Assembly: GCA_029862205.1 (NCBI GenBank)
Contig: JAOTXT010000019.1
Span: forward strand, 284-64,283
Source of the DNA: Paracoccaceae bacterium
GTDB taxonomy: Bacteria > Pseudomonadota > Alphaproteobacteria > Rhodobacterales > Rhodobacteraceae
Direction: 5' to 3'
Length of the DNA: 64,000 nt
Of the stretch, positions 4,390-11,904 are shown piece after piece; the stretch's first letter is position 1, and each line of letters begins with the position of its first letter. The translations under genes were made by a program, and so were the position numbers. The notes beneath the pieces were generated by a model. The model did no database searches, was not told the DNA's origin, and saw nothing but the letters and a program-made list of their open reading frames with translations.

Positions 4390-6540
4390 TCAGGCCGCGC
4401 GCCCGCCGCCCTCGCTGGGCTCCACCGGCATCCAGGATGGAGCGTCCTGGCCGAATTCGCGGTCGAGGGCCGCCAGATCCGCCTCGTGCTGGGCGATCTC
4501 GGCGGACAGCCAGTCGGGCGGCACCGGTTCCTGGGCATTGACGGACCCGGCCGGCGCCGGCGGCGCCTGGCCGCGCGTCGTATCGCGAAATATGCTGGTC
4601 AGCAGCTTGAGCGTGATCTCCAGCGCATCGTCATTTTGGACGGTGTTGTCGCAGCCGCCGGTGTAGACCTTGCGGATCACCCGGTCGCGGGTGCGCGACG
4701 GCGGCAGACTGAATTGCAGCCGCAGAATGCCCCCCGCGGAATGCACGACCCGCGCGGCGATCCGGCCCACATCGGCGACAGTGACCACCAGCCAATCGCC
4801 CTTCACCGGCGGATCGGCGCCAGCATAGCTCGCCGCCATGCCACCGAGCGAAATGTCGCGCAGTTGCGCCTGGTGGGTGCCGCCATGCTCTCGGCGGATG
4901 AGGACCGGTTCGTCCATCTCGAAGCGCACTTCGCGCCGGCGCGCACCAACGCTGAAGGCTGTCACCAGGACAACCAGCAGCACCACTGAATTAAAACTGC
5001 ACCAAACCGCAACGACCGGCACCAGTGAAACATCACTAATGATCCGCGCATCGAAGCTACTGTTGAGCAGGAAGCCCAATGCGGTCGCCGCCAGAAGGCC
5101 GGTTGCCATGAAGACGGTGAAGCGGTCATAGGACCGGACCCCGGCTTCGCTTCCCTTGGGAGTGACATGGAACTTGTGCCCGTAAGGCCGGACCAGCGTC
5201 TTGAACAGGCCCGGCAGGAGCCGGAACGCCTGCAACGCCCCAAGCACCGTGGCGGCCAGGGGAAAGTACTGCCCCGGGGCAAAGAACCTGAGCGCCGATA
5301 TTGCCGCCAGAATCGCTGGAAACTGGTAGGAGAGCAGCCCCTCGGGCGTCGTGTTCGCCATCGGCAGCAATCCGGTCAGCAGATAGATGCAGGGTGCGCT
5401 CATTGCCGCCACATGGGTCAGCGACTGGGTCAGCCAATGGGTCGGCAGGAACATCAGCCGCTGGATCAGGTTCAGCCCCGGTCCAAACGGCCCTTCGCGC
5501 AAATAGAGGATCTGTAATGCGCCCTGCGCCCACCGCGCACGCTGGACGAAGAAGGCATCGAGCGATTCCGGCGCCAGACCGATTGCCAGGCGCTCGTTTA
5601 GATAGCGGGTCACATAGCCTTGACGGAGAAGCGCCAGGGTCAGCAGCATGTCCTCGGTGATCGAGCCGGACGGCATGGCATTCCCGATCGCCTGAATGGC
5701 GCTGCGCCGGGTGATCGAGTTCGAGCCGCAGCAGAAGGCGCAATCCCATCCGTCGCGCCCGGGCATGATTTGGTCGAAGAACAATGCCTGATCGCCGGGC
5801 AGCGTACGCCGCAATGCCAGGTTGGACTGCATCGGGTCATGGTTGAAGAACCGGTGCGGCGCCTGGACGATCCCGACCTTCGGGTCGCCGAAAAAGCCAA
5901 TCATGCGGTAGAGGATCGTGCGCTGGGGAATGAAATCCGCGTCCAGAACGACGAAGAATTCGCCCGCGGTGCGCGGGATCGCGGCGTTGATATTGCCGGC
6001 CTTGGCATGGGCGTTGTCCGGCCGGGTCAGATAGCCGATGCGGCGTTCGGCGCAATAAGCGCGCAGGAACTCGCGCCGCCCGTCGTCCAGTACCCAGACC
6101 TTGAGCTTTTCCGGTGGCCAATCGATCGAGGCAGCGCCAATGATCGTGCGTTCGAGCACGTCCAAGGGCTCGTTGTAGGTGGCGATCAAGACATCGACCT
6201 CGGGCAGGTCCTCGGGCTCGACCGCGCGCAGCCGGGTCTCGTGCATGTCCGCCTCACCCGAGCGATCGGTCCGGCGGCAGAGCGCGGCGAAAAGGATCGC
6301 CGCGTCGAGCCAGGCCAGGCATTCGATGATGAACAACGTCCAGACCAGCGCCGATTGAAGGTCCAACCGGTTCGCGGGCAGGACCGTCACGGGGATGCGC
6401 CAGGCCATGTAGCGCACCACCAGAAAGCCCAGCGTTCCCGCCACCGCGTAACGCGCGAGCCGATTGTTTTTTAGTCTATCTGGATGGGCCAGAGCGAAGA
6501 TCGCCACCAGCCCCAAGGGCACCAGGATGATCGGCTCCAT
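4390..6540 (-). CDS. GT2 cellulose-synthase-like glucan synthase with C-terminal PilZ-type domain (BgsA-like)
   Basis: Motifs DDG, HAKAGN, DAD, QAPH, TED and QRARW; multiple TM helices; C-terminal RREVR...DISLGG (RxxxR/DxSxxG). Start set at MEPIIL (6540). Confidence 0.9.
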   Translation of the reverse strand: MEPIILVPLGLVAIFALAHPDRLKNNRLARYAVAGTLGFLVVRYMAWRIPVTVLPANRLDLQSALVWTLFIIECLAWLDAAILFAALCRRTDRSGEADMHETRLRAVEPEDLPEVDVLIATYNEPLDVLERTIIGAASIDWPPEKLKVWVLDDGRREFLRAYCAERRIGYLTRPDNAHAKAGNINAAIPRTAGEFFVVLDADFIPQRTILYRMIGFFGDPKVGIVQAPHRFFNHDPMQSNLALRRTLPGDQALFFDQIMPGRDGWDCAFCCGSNSITRRSAIQAIGNAMPSGSITEDMLLTLALLRQGYVTRYLNERLAIGLAPESLDAFFVQRARWAQGALQILYLREGPFGPGLNLIQRLMFLPTHWLTQSLTHVAAMSAPCIYLLTGLLPMANTTPEGLLSYQFPAILAAISALRFFAPGQYFPLAATVLGALQAFRLLPGLFKTLVRPYGHKFHVTPKGSEAGVRSYDRFTVFMATGLLAATALGFLLNSSFDARIISDVSLVPVVAVWCSFNSVVLLVVLVTAFSVGARRREVRFEMDEPVLIRREHGGTHQAQLRDISLGGMAASYAGADPPVKGDWLVVTVADVGRIAARVVHSAGGILRLQFSLPPSRTRDRVIRKVYTGGCDNTVQNDDALEITLKLLTSIFRDTTRGQAPPAPAGSVNAQEPVPPDWLSAEIAQHEADLAALDREFGQDAPSWMPVEPSEGGGRAA

Positions 6541-6550
6541 GTCGGCGCCG

Positions 6551-7870
6551 TCAACCGCCTGGTTCGAGTGCCGCAGCCTCGCCAAAGAACACGGCGCCAG
6601 AGAACACGGCGCCAGAGAACACGGCACCAGAGAACACGGCGCTCAAGCCGCGCCCGGCCGCGATCAGCAGGCGCCGGAGGTGACCCACATCGGCGCGCTC
6701 GAAGCGGACCTCGGCCGTGCGGCCCACATGGCAGAAGGCGCCGGGCGCGTCGTCGATCCGGCTCTCGGCCAGCGAGACCAGGACCCGGAGTTGATCGGGC
6801 TTGGCCTCGGTAACCGCGGCGGCCAGCCTGGGATGGTCGAACTTGGCGCCCGCGCCCAGCACGGCCGATATGCGCGCACCCACCGGCTCGCCCCCGCCCT
6901 TCAGCCGGACCCAGGCGGTGCCGCCGAGCTCGATGCTGTTGAAGTGGCGCTCGTTCAGGGTCACCTCGACAAAGCGGGACTCGCAATTGACCATCTGGAC
7001 CAGGACATCGCCCGGGACCACCGTCTCGCCGACCGCGCCGCTCTGCTTCCAAATCACGCCACCGGAGGCGGCTTCAGCGGCGAAGACCTCGCGCTCCTCG
7101 ACCAGGCGGGTCTCGCCCGCGATCTGGTCGGTCAATGCCAGGCGCTCGCCCTCAAACCGGCGGCGCTCGGTGGCAAGGCTCGCCAGTTGCAGCGTGATCC
7201 CGTCAAGCCGTTGCTGGCTATAGGGCACGTCGTTCCAGCCGTCCTGGACGAAGACCCCAGCCTCGACCGCCGCGCGCTCGACGGCGATGCGTTCGAGCCG
7301 GGCCCGGGCGCGTGCGACCTCGGCAGTCGCACCGGCATGGGCGGCGGTATCGGCATCCGTCCGGGTGGCGGTCGCATGACCTCGGCTCCTGAGAGCCTCG
7401 GCACGTTTAAGATTGGCAAAGGAATTGTCGCGCTGGGCCTCGGCGGATTCCAAGGCGGCCAAGGCCTCGCGCGACTCGGCGTCCAGGCGCTCGATCACCC
7501 GCGTTTGGTAGCTTGCGATCCGCTTGGACATGACCTGTTCCAGGGCACTGAGCTCGGCCATCTCAGCATCGATCGAAGCGAGACTCTCCTCGACAAGCGC
7601 CAACCGGGCGCGCAATTGCTCGAGATAGCGCCGATCCCGCTCCTCGATCTCGACGGTGACCAGGGCCTGACCGGCCGCGATTCCGGTTCCGGGGGGCGGT
7701 GATCTGCGGGTGATATGGCCTTGAAGCGGGCTGCGCACGGTGTTCAACGGCGCATTCACCACCGCCTGGGAAGAGACGTAGTTGGCCGCATATGGCACGA
7801 TGGTCCACAGCACCGCCGCCGCCAGGGCAAAGGCCAGGAGCAGGCGAAATTGTTGCGCGGTGATCCGCAT
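6551..7870 (-). CDS. HlyD-family membrane-fusion-type protein (BgsB-like)
   Basis: N-terminal TM anchor, lipoyl-like segments (VRSPLQGHI, GETVVPGDVL) and a long coiled coil; ends 10 bp upstream of the GT2 gene. Confidence 0.85.
   Translation of the reverse strand: MRITAQQFRLLLAFALAAAVLWTIVPYAANYVSSQAVVNAPLNTVRSPLQGHITRRSPPPGTGIAAGQALVTVEIEERDRRYLEQLRARLALVEESLASIDAEMAELSALEQVMSKRIASYQTRVIERLDAESREALAALESAEAQRDNSFANLKRAEALRSRGHATATRTDADTAAHAGATAEVARARARLERIAVERAAVEAGVFVQDGWNDVPYSQQRLDGITLQLASLATERRRFEGERLALTDQIAGETRLVEEREVFAAEAASGGVIWKQSGAVGETVVPGDVLVQMVNCESRFVEVTLNERHFNSIELGGTAWVRLKGGGEPVGARISAVLGAGAKFDHPRLAAAVTEAKPDQLRVLVSLAESRIDDAPGAFCHVGRTAEVRFERADVGHLRRLLIAAGRGLSAVFSGAVFSGAVFSGAVFFGEAAALEPGG
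6584..6643. repeat. 15-bp tandem repeat x4 in the 3' end of the HlyD gene, encoding (SGAVF)n
   Basis: aaagaacacggcgcc / agagaacacggcgcc / agagaacacggcacc / agagaacacggcgct. Confidence 0.9.
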
Positions 7871-8002
7871 CGCTCACGTCCAAGGGGATTGAAGCCGTTC
7901 TCTCGGGCCGAGAATGCGCCGTTAGCCTTAAAATTGGCGTATATATACCTTGCAAACCCAGTAAGGAGTGCTTACATATAAGGCTCAGAAACGGAGTCTG
8001 TT

Positions 8003-8950
8003 ATGTCGATCCTGGGCAAAGCCTACTTCCACAACGAGGAAGCCGCGTTTGAGCATGTAGAGGCGGTGCTTTGGCCGGATGGTCCGTATTGCCCGCATTG
8101 CGGTGCTGTGGACCGCATCGGCAAGATCAAGCCCAACCCGGAAAAGCGGGTGCGCCTTGGTCTGCACAAGTGCGGCCACTGCAAGGGCCAGTTCACGGTT
8201 CGCGTCGGCACCGTCTTTGAGGCCAGCAAGGTTCCGCTGCACAAGTGGTTGCAGGCGCTACACCTGATGACCAGCAGCAAGAAGGGTATCAGCGCGCACC
8301 AGCTACACCGGGTGCTGGAAGTGACCTACAAGACCAGTTGGTTTATGTGCCACCGCATTCGCGAGGCTATGCGGTCGGATGAACTAACCCCGTTCGGCGG
8401 CAACGGCGGCATCGTGGAAGTGGACGAGACGTTCATCGGCCACGACAAGACGGTTAAGCCGCATCGGAGCAAGAAGGGTCGCGGCCACCACCACAAGCAC
8501 AAGGTTCTGTCGCTGATGGATCGCGAGACCGGCAAGGCCCGCAGCATGGTCGTGGATGATCTAAAGGCCGCGACCTTGGCCCCGATCCTTCGCGATAACA
8601 TTGCCAAAGAGGCCACGCTTCTAACCGACGAGTTCCGCGTCTATCAGGGCGTGGGCCGCGAGTTTTCGGATCACCATCAGGTTCGCCACAAGATGGGCGA
8701 GTATGTGAACCGCAAAAATCCGGAAATCCACACCAACACGATTGAAGGCTACTTCTCCATTTTCAAGCGCGGCATGAAAGGCGTCTATCAGCATTGCGCG
8801 AAGAAGCACTTGCACCGTTACGTGGCCGAGTATGACTTCCGCTACAATAACCGCTCGGCCAACGGCATTGAGGATCAGGAGCGGGCGGCGATTGCGCTCG
8901 CCGGAGCGAGCGGGAAAAGGCTCAAATATGCTTGTAACCGACCTAATTGA
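8003..8950 (+). CDS. IS1595-family DDE transposase
   Basis: N-terminal Zn ribbon (CPHCG...CGHC), HTH, and catalytic motifs VEVDETF, TDE, HTNTIEGYFSIFKRG, YVAEYDFRYN. Confidence 0.95.
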   Translation: MSILGKAYFHNEEAAFEHVEAVLWPDGPYCPHCGAVDRIGKIKPNPEKRVRLGLHKCGHCKGQFTVRVGTVFEASKVPLHKWLQALHLMTSSKKGISAHQLHRVLEVTYKTSWFMCHRIREAMRSDELTPFGGNGGIVEVDETFIGHDKTVKPHRSKKGRGHHHKHKVLSLMDRETGKARSMVVDDLKAATLAPILRDNIAKEATLLTDEFRVYQGVGREFSDHHQVRHKMGEYVNRKNPEIHTNTIEGYFSIFKRGMKGVYQHCAKKHLHRYVAEYDFRYNNRSANGIEDQERAAIALAGASGKRLKYACNRPN

Positions 8951-9021
8951 GTCGGAAACTGTCAATACCTAGTGTGCAAATCGCGATAAAAGTGTATATA
9001 TAGCGCAAACGGAAGGATGGT

Positions 9022-9573
9022 GTGATGGACCGTCTAGAATGGCTAACGTTCGGAAACAACACGCCCGCCAGCCAAGAGAGGCTTGGCGAGCTTGTGCTAT
9101 ATATTGCCGAAAAAACAGAGGACTATGCTGATTTTGGGTCCACCAAGATCAACAAGACACTCTACTACTCCGACTTCGAGAACTTCCGAATTCGCGGCAA
9201 GTCGATCACGGGCGCCCAGTATCAGCGCATCACGCACGGCCCCGCTCCTAAGCACATCGTTTTTGTCGAGGGCCGCCTTAAAGAACACGGTGAGCTTAGG
9301 ATCGACGCGCAGCAAATGACACACAAGAGAGTTGCACTGCGCAAGGCGAATACAACGATCTTTAAGCCTTCGGAATTAGCGCTCATTGACAAGCATATTG
9401 AGCGCCTTAACAGGCAAACAAGCACAGAGGTGAGCAAGGAAAGCCACGACGTTCGCTGGAATATCGTGAACGATGCCGATCTTCTGCCCTATGAGTTCGC
9501 GTTCCTTGACGACACTTATACGAGCGAAGATGAGGCAGAAACCAATCGGCTTGCTAGTGAATTCGAGTGGTAA
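9022..9573 (+). CDS. Panacea/DUF4065 (SocA-like) antitoxin-domain protein
   Basis: KINKTLYYSDF...GKSITGAQY...HGPAP...ESH pattern characteristic of DUF4065. Confidence 0.8.
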   Translation: MMDRLEWLTFGNNTPASQERLGELVLYIAEKTEDYADFGSTKINKTLYYSDFENFRIRGKSITGAQYQRITHGPAPKHIVFVEGRLKEHGELRIDAQQMTHKRVALRKANTTIFKPSELALIDKHIERLNRQTSTEVSKESHDVRWNIVNDADLLPYEFAFLDDTYTSEDEAETNRLASEFEW

Positions 9574-9842
9574 TGGATTATCAGGTCGTTCACGAACAAA
9601 CCTACGATTATGCAATTTCTAGCCTTCCAACCGTCACTTTGCAGCAGGCGGAAGAGGCGGTTGGAGCGATTAGCTATGCACTGAGCCGAAATCCGAAAGG
9701 CTTCCGCAAAGTGCGCGATCCAGATGTTTATCTAGCTAAAATCGCCCCTCGCCCGAGAGATCATTTACCAGGTTTTCGTGTTTGGTTCCGGGTAAGTTCT
9801 GACGATAAACACGTTTACTTACTATATATTAATGAATACTGA
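9573..9842 (+). CDS. Small RelE/ParE-like putative toxin (~89 aa)
   Basis: TAATG overlap with the antitoxin stop. Size and the C-terminal FRVWFRV...VYLLYI pattern resemble RelE/ParE proteins. The ORF track starts it at GTG 9567. Confidence 0.55.
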   Translation: MDYQVVHEQTYDYAISSLPTVTLQQAEEAVGAISYALSRNPKGFRKVRDPDVYLAKIAPRPRDHLPGFRVWFRVSSDDKHVYLLYINEY

Positions 9843-10005
9843 CAAGAAAGATAAGAAAGAACGGTCTCAGCTTGAAAAGTTCAAGCAAGCTGCCCGCGAG
9901 CTTGGCGCGGATCAGGATGAGGCGACCTTCGACCAGGTCATCTGGAAGATGAAGCCCCCGCCCGACAAGGCGGACAAACCGAAGAAGAAAAAGCCCGGTC
10001 AGTGA
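9832..10005 (+). CDS. Small basic IS1595-associated protein (57 aa)
   Basis: Below the ORF-track size. Manual translation MNTDKKDKKERSQLEKFKQAARELGADQDEATFDQVIWKMKPPPDKADKPKKKKPGQ; overlaps the toxin stop by 11 bp. Confidence 0.65.
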   Translation: MNTDKKDKKERSQLEKFKQAARELGADQDEATFDQVIWKMKPPPDKADKPKKKKPGQ

Positions 10006-10015
10006 GCCGGGCTTT
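9990..10015. terminator. Probable bidirectional intrinsic terminator inside the transposon
   Basis: aaagcccgg-tcagtgag-ccgggcttt, with an A-run on the left and a T-rich run on the right, between convergent passenger genes. Confidence 0.7.
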
Positions 10016-10037
10016 CTCTTAGGAGGTAAGGCAAATG

Positions 10038-10322
10038 CTAGTGAGATGTCGGTCGCTTTGGAGGGTTCTTGCGGATGTCTTCGAAAATCTCGTCAACGAC
10101 ACGCGAAAGTCCGCCGTGATAAAATCCCCGGAGCAGTTCCACTGTATTTCGGGCTGCACCGTCGAAGGTGAAATACGGTTTCTCGAACCCGCATCCCTTA
10201 AATCCCGTAAAAGCTCCGCCGCTGTAAATGAAGGTGCATGATCTGAAAATGGTATCCTCGTACTTCATGTCGTCCATCTCGATTTCGCAGTTCTCAAGTT
10301 CGTTCTTGAATTTCTTCGCCAT
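10038..10322 (-). CDS. Hypothetical passenger protein (94 aa)
   Basis: Purine-rich RBS (aggaaggag) upstream; natural composition with periodic Phe/Cys (FRSCTFIYSGG, GCGFEKPYFTF). Confidence 0.7.
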   Translation of the reverse strand: MAKKFKNELENCEIEMDDMKYEDTIFRSCTFIYSGGAFTGFKGCGFEKPYFTFDGAARNTVELLRGFYHGGLSRVVDEIFEDIRKNPPKRPTSH

Positions 10323-10424
10323 CTCGCAAACTCCTTCCTGTCAATACCCATGTAGGTATCTCGGGTTGGGTTTGCAAAGTACATAATCGCCTTAAAATTG
10401 GGTTTGCCAAATATTGCCAAAGGG

Positions 10425-11828
10425 TTACACGATCCGATAGGGCAGGATCCCGCGCCGGTTCGGATCGATGCTCAGCGCCTTCTCGACCGGGGGCACCGAG
10501 CGCTGGTGGCAATTGGTGCGCTCGCAGATGCGGCAGCTGACCCCGATCGGCTCGAAAGCCGCGGCATTCGTTGTGTCCAGATCATCCGCATAGACCAATT
10601 GATCGGCGTATTTCACCTCGCAGCCGAGCGCGATCGCATAGCGCCTTGCGGGCGCGCGGAAATGCCCGCCCGGCTTGATCACATCGCGCGCCAGGCAGAT
10701 GTAGCGAACCCCGTCCGGCGTTTCAGCCAATTGGCGCAGGATGCGGCCTGGCGTCTCGAAGGCCTGATGCACGTTCCAGAGGGGACAGGCGCCACCAAAG
10801 CGCGCGAATTGCAGCCGGGTCGAAGAATGGCGCTTGGTGATGGTGCCTGCCTGATCGACCCTGGCGAAGAAGAACGGGATGCCCTTGTTGCCAGGCCGCT
10901 GCAGGGTCGAGAGCCGGTGCCCGGTCTGTTCGATCGAGGTGCCGAAACGGCCCGCCAGCGCATCCAGATCGTGACGAAGCTCGCGCGCGGCCGTCAGCGT
11001 CGCCTCGTAGGGCAGGATCGCGGCGCCAGCAAAATAATTGGCCAGCCCGATCCGGGCGATCGCACGGGCTTCGGTGCTGCGAAAACGGGCGAGGTCCAGC
11101 GTCGCCTCGATCAGCCCCTCATGGGCGATCAGCGCCACCTGATGGGCAAGCTGGAAGGCGTTGGTCTCGACACTGCCTTCGGCCGGAAGGGTCAGAACTT
11201 TAGCCAGTGGGTCGTAGCGTCGGATCGCGTCGCCCGCGAACTCGGTGCGCACGCCGTGGGTCTCGGCCAGCCAGGCGGTCCCGGCGGCAAGCTTGTCGCG
11301 CCCCTCGAACTGGGCGTTCCGTGAGAACTGCTCGGCGGCGCGGTCGACCGCGTCGATATAATTGTCGCAATAGTGAAAGAAGTCGCGCACCTCTTCCCAA
11401 GGCATCGGCGTCAGGCCGCCGGAGGGGCGGTCGAGCGCCTCGTCCAGGCTCGCGAACCGCTCCTGCCCCGCGCGATAGGCGCGGTGGAGCGCCAGGAAGG
11501 CATGCGCGAGGCCCGGCGCGTTGGTCGCCAGGATCTGCAACTCCGCCCGGCTGTGGGCGGTCTCGCGGAACAGGGGATCGGCCAGGGCCTCGCGCAGGTC
11601 CGCCATCAGACGGTCACCCTCGTCCATCGAGAAGACGGCGACATCGACCCCGAACCGCTCGGCAAGGCCCTGGACCACATCGCGGCTTACGGGTCGGTTG
11701 TTGTTCTCCATCTGGTTCAGATAGCTGAGGCTGACCCCCAGCTCGCGGGCGAATGCGGTCTGGGTCAGGCCCAGGCCGCGGCGGATTTCGCCAAGGCGGG
11801 CGCCAGCGTAGATTTTGCGGGTAGCCAT
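10425..11828 (-). CDS. pccR: Short-chain fatty acyl-CoA regulator (ScfR/PccR family): XRE HTH, IrrE-like domain and C-terminal Cys motif
   Basis: MATRKIYAGARL...GVSLSYLNQMENN; GGACPLWNVH; C-terminal IGVSCRICERTNCHQRS; divergent from pccB. Confidence 0.88.
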   Translation of the reverse strand: MATRKIYAGARLGEIRRGLGLTQTAFARELGVSLSYLNQMENNNRPVSRDVVQGLAERFGVDVAVFSMDEGDRLMADLREALADPLFRETAHSRAELQILATNAPGLAHAFLALHRAYRAGQERFASLDEALDRPSGGLTPMPWEEVRDFFHYCDNYIDAVDRAAEQFSRNAQFEGRDKLAAGTAWLAETHGVRTEFAGDAIRRYDPLAKVLTLPAEGSVETNAFQLAHQVALIAHEGLIEATLDLARFRSTEARAIARIGLANYFAGAAILPYEATLTAARELRHDLDALAGRFGTSIEQTGHRLSTLQRPGNKGIPFFFARVDQAGTITKRHSSTRLQFARFGGACPLWNVHQAFETPGRILRQLAETPDGVRYICLARDVIKPGGHFRAPARRYAIALGCEVKYADQLVYADDLDTTNAAAFEPIGVSCRICERTNCHQRSVPPVEKALSIDPNRRGILPYRIV

Positions 11829-11857
11829 GGGTGTCGCCCCCCAATCCATAACGGCTA

Positions 11858-11904
11858 TTCGCAGTTTCGCAAAAAACTTTCGCAAATTCTATAGCCTTTG
11901 CAGG
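11858..11904. promoter_or_regulatory. Probable PccR operator (repeated TTCGCAAA/TTTGCA)
   Basis: TTCGCAAA at 11866-11873 and 11879-11886 plus weaker copies, between pccR and pccB. Resembles the TTTGCAAA-Xn-TTTGCAAA motif known for this family. Confidence 0.55.

Follow-up and report, generated by a model that had tools for sequence, protein, structure and literature searches.

A Modular IS1595-Family Element Carrying a Panacea Protein, a Predicted RelE-Fold Partner and a Conserved Small Basic Protein

Introduction

Why should an insertion sequence (IS), an element usually viewed as a transposase gene only, keep a set of other genes between its ends, and what could these genes do for it? The question is raised by a locus in a Paracoccaceae bacterium (GenBank assembly GCA_029862205.1, contig JAOTXT010000019.1), of which a stretch of 64,000 nucleotides (positions 284 to 64,283 of the forward strand; hereafter the window, whose own coordinates are used throughout) was analyzed. 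It holds an element of the IS1595 family that encloses, besides the transposase gene (tnp), a gene for a putative antitoxin with a Panacea domain (PanA), a gene for an 89-aa protein, a gene for a small basic protein of 57 aa (p57) and a convergent open reading frame (ORF) of 94 aa. An original prediction, made from the letters of the window, had described it as an intact transposon bearing a Panacea (DUF4065) antitoxin/RelE-like toxin operon and two orphan ORFs. Having compared the element with its relatives, we consider the finding real, its structural interpretation largely right, and its functional reading no more than plausible. The reading that we favor, with a probability of roughly 0.65, is that of a passenger-carrying IS1595 element from a modular lineage, the cassette of which combines PanA with a RelE-fold toxin (PanT) and would give rise to addiction at the level of the element.

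Architecture of the Element

The element and its genes are arranged as follows:

7928-7935, no strand: left copy of the target site duplication (TSD), TTAAAATT, identical to 10392-10399 (perfect 8-bp repeat)
7936-10391: IS1595-family element proper, 2,456 bp, delimited by sequence reading and repeat search
7936-7960, plus strand: left inverted repeat (IRL), GGCGTATATATACCTTGCAAACCCA, 25 nt, 21/25 (84%) complementary to 10367-10391
8003-8950, plus strand: IS1595-family DDE transposase, 315 aa, with N-terminal zinc ribbon (Pfam/NCBIfam)
8965-9006, plus strand: promoter-like motif of the cargo operon, TAGTGTGCA ... TATATATAG (spacer alignment)
9025-9573, plus strand: panA, Panacea/DUF4065 (SocA-like) putative antitoxin, 182 aa (PF13274)
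9573-9842, plus strand: 89-aa protein with predicted RelE/ParE fold, putative PanT toxin, overlapping panA by one base (TAATG)
9832-10005, plus strand: p57, small basic protein, 57 aa, pI 9.6, overlapping the 89-aa ORF by 11 nt
9985-10020, no strand: hairpin resembling a bidirectional intrinsic terminator, 14-pair stem with a GCCCGG/CCGGGC core
10038-10322, minus strand: convergent 94-aa ORF in a variable cargo slot (phrog_26297, 3e-16)
10367-10391, minus strand: right inverted repeat (IRR), inward reading GGCGATTATGTACTTTGCAAACCCA, pairing with the IRL (7936-7960) at 21/25
10392-10399, no strand: right copy of the TSD, TTAAAATT, identical to 7928-7935

The inverted ends, the perfect duplication and the intact transposase of the original prediction were all recovered at essentially the positions it gave, its count of 20/24 for the terminal inverted repeats (TIRs) being the same repeat measured one base shorter. 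The tight coupling of three genes through the TAATG junction and the 11-nt overlap, the basic 57-aa protein at the end of this unit, the bidirectional terminator and the convergent ORF are likewise as it had described them. An 8-bp TSD, with TTAAAATT on both sides, and GG-initiated TIRs, here beginning GGCG, belong to the features of the IS1595 family (PMC8101967). Inside the inverted repeats there are four ORFs more than the lone transposase ORF of the classical IS definition, which puts the element in the category of transporter IS (tIS) of IS1595, still within the family; IS1595 and IS66 are the only IS families for which tIS are reported (10.1101/2021.05.26.445724), and passengers in an IS1595 element, as had been proposed, fall into a recognized category.

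The transposase matches the Pfam models DDE_Tnp_IS1595 (PF12762; 5.8e-34, 117.7 bits against a cut-off of 27) and Zn_ribbon_IS1595 (PF12760; 1.5e-09, 38.1 bits against 25.4), as well as the NCBIfam model transpos_IS1595 (NF033547; 1e-63, 215 bits against 75). It is full-length, and in an alignment with five relatives D141, D209, E248 and K255 are invariant and the zinc-ribbon cysteines of the motif CPHC...C..C are kept; its dN/dS among relatives is about 0.1. E248 and K255, together with the end GGCGATTAT, agree with the ISfinder signature of the ISNwi1 subgroup (D..D..E with K at +7, and ends GGnnATTAT), in which the element would presumably be placed; searches of the literature gave no definition of the subgroup. 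The IRL is similar to the end consensus GGCGATTGTATAYTTGACAAACCC that related elements share, and the IRL 25-mer has no other match in the window at up to three mismatches (expected number 0). The G+C content of the element is 53%, as against 65-67% in the flanks, and that of the cargo is below that of the transposase gene.

One observation was made at the right edge. Directly 3' of the right TSD, at 10400-10414, the sequence GGGTTTGCCAAATAT matches the inner 15 nt of the consensus IRR (GGGTTTGTCAAATAT) at 14/15 positions, and it is the sole such site in the window at up to two mismatches (expected number 0.03). It could be the solo-end remnant of an earlier sister element, or the present element could have inserted beside DNA that happens to be IR-like.

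The Cargo Operon and Its Signals

PanA was correctly recognized as a DUF4065/Panacea protein, since residues 43-145 match the Pfam model SocA_Panacea (PF13274) at 49.5 bits, against a gathering cut-off of 25.7. The protein has a pI of 5.4 and 47 homologues, and a C-terminal tail beyond the domain is conserved, with the motif PYEFAFL...GW.

In the spacer between tnp and panA, the motif CTTGTGTGT-N17-19-TACTATAT is kept in six of the seven elements aligned, the seventh (L022) having the -35-like part only. A generic sigma-70 scan did not flag the motif at 8965-9006, which from its conservation is probably the promoter of the cargo operon. The same conservation accounts for a box, TATATATA, that was first read as a relic inverted repeat: a vestigial internal IRR after the transposase gene had been considered because of the IRL-like GTATATATAGCGC, the TATATATAC motif and an 11-nt sequence, CTGTCAATACC, held in common with the right end, and was ruled out when alignment of the seven spacers identified this box as the conserved -10 region of the promoter-like motif. 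A 13-nt inverted repeat (12/13; 8996-9008 and 9092-9104) flanks the start codon of panA; one of its arms falls within the -10 region, the second is part of the coding sequence, and the repeat could be an operator or an mRNA structure.

At the other end of the operon, the hairpin at 9985-10020 is followed by TTTCTCTT on the plus strand and by TTTTTCTT on the minus strand, and these T-runs on both strands are the basis for reading it as a bidirectional terminator. Beyond it lies the convergent 94-aa ORF, which has a weak match to a hypothetical protein of the Elizabethkingia phage EKP1.

The 89-aa Protein: A New Sequence Family with a Predicted RelE/ParE Fold

The partner of PanA has no match in Pfam, NCBIfam, PADLOC or PHROGs, and phmmer and profile searches of PDB sequences returned nothing relevant. 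A word-indexed search of 5.8 billion proteins recovered only the query itself, and an exhaustive HMMER search of 1.84 billion cluster representatives gave 18 matches at E<1e-3, 16 of them genuine proteins of 78-115 aa and two of them spurious repeat proteins. A search with the family profile yielded 42 proteins, none of which is named or has a Pfam domain. Judged from these searches, the 89-aa protein represents a new sequence family for which neither Pfam nor NCBIfam has a model.

A single-sequence AlphaFold model of the protein was useless (pLDDT 46.6); AlphaFold2 with the 42-sequence alignment gave a model with pLDDT 96.3 and pTM 0.85, of the topology beta-alpha-alpha-beta4. When this model was compared with the PDB by Foldseek, the top match was M. 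tuberculosis RelE2 (3g5o_B; E 9e-5, TM 0.74/0.80), followed by T. thermophilus RelE, M. tuberculosis RelE1, E. coli RelE, HigB2, PfiT and YoeB. The best matches have TM 0.72-0.80 at probability 1.00, and all of the top 27 are RelE, HigB2, YoeB, PfiT or HP0892 toxins (probabilities 0.98-1.00). A fold search of BFVD gave only weak unnamed matches. Given the confidence of the model and the toxin matches, a RelE/ParE fold is supported at the level of structure prediction, and the RelE/ParE-like guess of the original prediction is to this extent borne out. Among polar residues, the family conserves K56, R69 and R73, which correspond in position to strands 2-3, and an acidic residue where the last strand ends.

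Co-Conservation of the Pair

PanA homologues of 35-56% identity were traced to their contigs, and each is followed directly, usually with an overlap, by a relative of the 89-aa protein. The arrangement holds in all groups of PanA-bearing loci that were checked (15/15), including some loci where gene callers had missed the 89-aa homologue, and in eight independent IS1595 elements the pair is adjacent at 31-52% identity. It is found in Roseobacter, Roseovarius, Sulfitobacter, Bradyrhizobium and several metagenome-assembled genomes (MAGs), both with and without an IS. The pair is thus adjacent in every relative examined, as the proposed pairing implies, and its neighborhood is that by which PanAT loci are recognized (PMC8832971). 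Among Roseobacter-clade copies, synonymous sites are saturated (pS 0.80-0.94) and pN is only 0.10-0.36; from these comparisons the pair is co-conserved and under purifying selection, as indeed are all four genes compared. Plasmid and phage searches with the pair, at both the nucleotide and the protein level, and with p57 gave no match.

The IS-free loci (L013-L017, L018/19 and Bradyrhizobium sp. CB82, L020) indicate that the pair is a unit in its own right. At L013-L017 it is flanked by parB and a gene for an ABC-F ATPase, beside gidA-gidB-parA-parB and hence origin-proximal, a position that recurs in at least five different metagenome samples.

A Modular Lineage of Elements

Eight further loci have tnp, panA, the RelE-fold gene and p57 inside inverted ends of their own. 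Altogether, nine further elements with their own TIRs were delimited (L004/5, L011, L009/L010, L021, L022, L025, L026, L027 and L028), and six of the nine are bordered by 7-8-bp duplications of their own, at sites that differ; L027 is situated in an A-run, and L028 is without a duplication. The targets are all A/T-rich. Those with the pair compare as follows with the element of the window, whose fourth gene is a member of phrog_26297:

L004/L005: 2,979 bp, flanking repeat CTATTTTC, perfect 27-bp TIRs, fourth gene (L004) for a 232-aa unknown protein
L011, uncultured Roseovarius: 2,496 bp, flanking repeat TTCTGAAA, fourth gene for a 91-aa unknown protein
L021, chromosome of Sulfitobacter sp. S190 (CP081120): 2,619 bp, flanking repeat CAAAATTG, fourth gene DUF3892
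L022: 2,378 bp, flanking repeat CCCGAAA, no fourth gene
L025: 2,104 bp, flanking repeat AAAATTTT / AAAACTTT, no fourth gene
L009 and L010, one Roseobacter MAG (NP10): 2,532 bp, flanking repeat TAACAAAG across contigs, fourth gene Cas2-like

The convergent fourth gene is accordingly not conserved, relatives having unrelated genes or none in its place; a Fic gene was considered as cargo of L022 and rejected, as it lies outside the IRR of that element. In the Roseobacter sp. NP10 MAG, the two copies of the element are 100% identical over 2,532 bp, and TAACAAAG is found both in the left flank on one contig and in the right flank on the other, so that the partners of the TSD are on separate contigs, through either recombination between the copies or an assembly join. 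At L006, L007 and L012 a 37-aa transposase remnant stands beside the pair, and these loci are decayed elements to judge from that remnant. In L006, a 72-aa ORF with two predicted membrane helices (4852-5070) overlaps the end of the RelE-fold gene, at the place of p57. Immediately upstream of the Sulfitobacter S190 element (L021, 1-2355) are two reverse-transcriptase (RVT_1) genes, which could be part of a retron, of a group II intron or of a reverse-transcriptase cluster for defence.

Relatives with other cassettes were found by a transposase search of plasmids. Plasmid p1318-1 of Roseomonas marmotae has a 2,604-bp relative inside an IS30-like gene, with a transposase 56% identical and the TSD TATCTTTA, the cargo of which encodes a 266-aa protein, a protein with a PIN domain and a p57 homologue of 61 aa; the 266-aa protein is not PanA (hhalign probability 0.1%), and the gene of the p57 homologue shares 11 nt with the PIN gene, just as p57 in the window does with the 89-aa ORF. 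On pMOC1 of Methylobacterium oryzae, tnp is accompanied by genes for a 288-aa protein, an annotated VapC toxin and a p57-like protein, and by a convergent gene. Plasmids of Pseudosulfitobacter pseudonitzschiae have a 1,869-bp element made up of tnp, p57 and a convergent Cas2-like gene, with no cassette at all. The element on pSD118 of Sulfitobacter guttiformis (L028, 2932-5816) has a convergent 88-aa ORF, a 238-aa ORF, p57 and a 105-aa ORF; its TIRs are intact and its flanks unlike (TAAATTTT versus TAATCGAA), and the resulting lack of a TSD suggests rearrangement between copies. Taken together, the relatives with another cassette or with none give the layout IRL - tnp - optional two-gene cassette of toxin-antitoxin (TA) type - p57 - terminator - optional convergent gene - IRR, and by sequence comparison this modular lineage spans Rhodobacterales, Hyphomicrobiales and Acetobacteraceae, in marine and soil alphaproteobacteria.

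Exchange also appears to have occurred within the lineage. Pairwise identities of transposase and cargo are in broad agreement (Mantel p 0.01-0.07); strict co-phylogeny of the two was considered and rejected, since the trend is only broad and there is one clear exception. The NP10 transposase is nearest to that of S190 (84%), while NP10 PanA and RelE-fold protein are nearest to those of Roseovarius (79% and 86%), a mismatch that points to recombination between elements.

p57 as the Constant Companion of the Transposase

On the evidence of the elements compared, p57 is the accessory gene that varies least in occurrence across this IS clade. It is kept in all 11 related elements with identifiable ends, including those with a different cassette or without one, and it is present in every IS-borne copy of the pair and in none of the IS-free pairs. 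The p57 protein has the motif QLxKFKxAARELGAD; its homologues have the common motif QLDRFKEAARELGxDDDE..F and a Lys/Pro-rich tail, and its dN/dS is 0.22-0.29. With a p57 hidden Markov model, the homologue of the cassette-less Pseudosulfitobacter element scores 63.8 bits, that of S. guttiformis 68.2 and that of Methylobacterium 18.2; the Roseomonas protein reaches 22.1 bits, against a best score of 12.6 in 5,000 shuffles. A comparison of the p57 profile with PDB sequences gave chance-level matches only.

Since p57 occurs with other cassettes and with none, it is a backbone gene of the IS clade, and the description of two orphan ORFs has to be given up: the 57-aa protein is conserved in 11/11 elements, and the 94-aa ORF, a member of phrog_26297, sits in a slot whose content varies. 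Its association with the transposase whatever the cassette, together with its Lys/Pro-rich tail, makes it most likely that p57 binds nucleic acid and serves the element as an accessory or regulatory factor.

What the Cassette May Do

The zinc-ribbon DDE transposase acts on the ~25-bp GG-initiated inverted ends, and it has inserted the whole 2.46-kb unit into an A/T-rich 8-mer between the genes for a ScfR-type regulator and an HlyD-family protein, with duplication of TTAAAATT. On the reading that we favor, the three cargo genes would be transcribed from their own promoter in the spacer as far as the hairpin, panA first and then the RelE-fold gene, the two being coupled in translation. The RelE-fold protein, as its modelled structure suggests, may be a toxin (PanT) that inhibits growth, acting as an RNase or, like ParE, as the poison of an enzyme. 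By analogy with known Panacea systems, PanA would neutralize it by direct binding, perhaps via its conserved acidic C-terminal tail, and the pair would make the loss of the element or of its carrier replicon costly, which amounts to IS-level addiction. It may also abort phage infection.

A number of observations weigh against this proposal. Members of the RelE-fold family are rare, with 16 genuine ones among 1.84 billion representative proteins, and none of the 42 retrieved matches any Pfam toxin or other model at E<=1. When hhalign was run against E. coli RelE, the probability was 0.9%, the strands that it paired, YLAKI...FRVWFRV with YKIKL...YRLVYQV, being topologically equivalent. The pI computed for three family members is 6.8 (the 89-aa protein), 5.3 and 4.6, versus 9.7 for E. 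coli RelE, the sole ribosome-dependent toxin for which it was computed. The family ends right after the last beta-strand, without the C-terminal catalytic helix, and therefore has no equivalents of RelE R81 and Y87; the copy in the window has N87 at a position that is acidic in over 90% of members. PanA is without a recognizable DNA-binding domain for autoregulation, and none of the five proteins of the element has a PADLOC-DB match at E<=1. As for the element itself, the TIRs of the window, with four mismatches, are the most degenerate of the set, most relatives being perfect or one position off, so that its present-day mobility is uncertain. Neither an empty target site, sought as the 26-nt junction pattern in metagenome contigs, nor an IS-less form was found, the latter among contigs of four sediment metagenomes that span both junctions at ~4x depth.

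Several of these points would suit a different role, in which PanA, the RelE-fold protein and p57 are no TA system but an accessory module of the transposon, bearing on transposase activity, target choice or copy number, with the RelE-fold protein as a catalytically dead scaffold. A family that is neutral to acidic, lacks the catalytic helix and shows no sequence-level toxin signature speaks for such a module, as do the tie of p57 to the transposase rather than to the cassette and the broad co-divergence of cargo and transposase; moreover, eight PanTs were non-toxic in E. coli (Kurata et al., PMC8832971). We nevertheless regard this role as unlikely. The pair is intact and overlapping at chromosomal sites that have no transposase, p57 or IS ends (L013-L020), where it would function without transposition; the slot of sister elements holds a PIN/VapC cassette, a classic TA toxin; and K56, R69, R73 and the acidic sheet residue are conserved. 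The cassette might instead serve primarily in abortive infection of phages, PanA being the sensor that frees the toxin and stabilization of the IS a by-product. Genes of a phage family or with a flavor of defence do occupy the variable slot, namely phrog_26297 in the window and Cas2-like genes in NP10 and Pseudosulfitobacter, and the PanA domain matches phrog_1281. The missing PADLOC matches tell against this role, as does the insertion site in the window, which lies between a regulator gene and an efflux-adaptor gene with no evident defence-island context, and it seems to us improbable.

That the cargo is a one-off capture of neighboring host DNA through a surrogate right end, without function for the element, was suggested by its G+C content, lower than that of the transposase gene, and by CTGTCAATACC and TATATATAC while these still resembled an internal IRR. 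The comparative data already refute this, and hardly any weight is left to it: gene order is kept in eight independent elements down to ~40% protein identity, each with its own TIRs; the supposed repeat corresponds to the -10 region that the cargo promoters conserve; purifying selection acts on all four genes; and all six elements measured show the G+C step from tnp to cargo, which also rules out recent capture as its cause. A bolder extension of the favored reading, which we put forward tentatively and would not bet on, is that the IS1595 clade has an establishment module, with p57 as a DNA/RNA-binding protein next to a plug-in slot for TA cassettes (PanA with the RelE-fold protein, or another protein with a PIN toxin), co-transcribed so that the toxin is tied to the presence or movement of the element. 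If this were true, addiction would operate at the scale of a single IS and would explain its persistence, and IS1595 would be both vehicle and recombination workshop for the swapping of TA partners.

Relation to Known Systems

Of the kinds of system involved, tIS and PanAT are known, and what seems to be new is the clade-wide modular design, p57 and the RelE-fold sequence family. Like other tIS of IS1595, the element has a zinc ribbon and the DDE_Tnp_IS1595 domain, ~25-bp GG-initiated TIRs, an 8-bp TSD and passengers inside the inverted repeats; unlike them, its passengers are a lineage-wide module of TA-like cassette, p57 and variable slot rather than an idiosyncratic capture. In open-access and preprint full text, we found no description of a conserved small second gene such as p57, of exchangeable TA cassettes in IS1595, of the clade-wide modular design or of this RelE-fold family; ISfinder, in which the element is perhaps named, was outside the scope of that search.

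PanA is known to neutralize many unrelated toxins, PanAT loci often lie near transposases (PMC8832971), and C-terminal extensions of PanA can be the neutralizing element (PMC10440598). As in the PanAT systems described (Kurata et al. 2022, Ernits et al. 2023), a standalone Panacea protein is encoded upstream of, and overlapping, a small conserved partner, in the order antitoxin-toxin, in many species and beside transposases. RelE-superfamily partners also occur there, since Dataset S1 of Kurata et al. 2022 lists ParE, the HigB-2-like T14 and the YoeB/ParE-like T28 as partners of PanA; the possibly new PanA-toxin pairing of the original prediction is hence new as regards the sequence family and known as regards the kind of pairing (T14, T28). 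The partner in the window differs in that neither Pfam nor NCBIfam covers it with a model, its pI is neutral to acidic and it lacks a C-terminal catalytic extension, and the IS-borne versions have p57 as a third coupled gene after the pair. For Mesorhizobium and Novosphingobium, the same Dataset S1 includes transposases of IS1595 encoded just upstream of PanA, which Kurata et al. discarded as the 'False Positive Cluster' pT35 and did not recognize as belonging with PanA to one element.

With the RelE/ParE superfamily, the 89-aa protein has in common the predicted beta1-alpha1-alpha2-beta sheet topology, its similarity extending to both RelE2 and RelE1 of M. tuberculosis (TM 0.72-0.80), and a Lys (strand 2/3) and an Arg (next strand) at the places of RelE K52/K54 and R61. 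It departs from the superfamily in lacking detectable sequence similarity, the C-terminal helix and the R81/Y87 equivalents, in not being basic, and in its partner, which is PanA and not a RelB, HigA, YefM or ParD antitoxin. A parallel at the level of the mobile element is provided by the Tn3 family, in which TA pairs are integral to transposition modules and have been proposed to stabilize the transposon (Lima-Mendez et al. 2020, PMC7157771). There, too, the pair lies beside the transposition gene(s) and not among distal passengers, and different TA types in related transposons imply repeated acquisition or exchange. The element in the window differs from these in class, as a small cut/copy IS that encodes a 315-aa transposase and lacks both a resolvase and a res site; in addition, a promoter-like motif of its own precedes the cassette, and a small gene specific to the clade comes after it.

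An IS lineage that keeps a TA-like cassette and p57 inside its ends across ~40-85% protein divergence, and swaps cassette types, departs from the common picture of such elements. If the cassette is a working TA system, it would offer a concrete setting for partner swapping by Panacea proteins and add a RelE-fold family that current sequence models miss, and the IS1595 transposases filtered from the PanA census would be part of the same mobile unit as panA. For annotation, p57 and the 89-aa protein merit family models.

Insertion Site and Flanking Genes

The element splits an intergenic region of ~90 bp between two genes:

6551-7870, minus strand: HlyD-family gene, the element being 57 nt upstream of its start (7871-7927)
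10425-11885, minus strand: gene for a ScfR-type regulator (HTH, M78 peptidase and ScfRs), the element being 25 nt beyond its stop (10400-10424)

A polar or promoter effect of the insertion on the HlyD-family gene is possible, and promoter-like hybrids extend across the right junction in both directions. Metagenome contigs on which the 89-aa protein is encoded without any change agree with the window at 99.9-100% identity throughout their length, and the two that extend past the element match its right flank too; agreeing with the window in this way, flank included, they represent the same genome and not independent copies of the element. Near the 3' end of the HlyD-family ORF (~6560-6620) there is a short in-frame tandem repeat of 15 nt, which encodes SAVFSGAVFSGAVFSGAVFFG and reads EHGAREHGAREHG on the opposite strand. 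Farther to the left, a tRNA-Asn (GTT) at 1807-1881 is the sole Rfam or ARAGORN match in the 64-kb window.

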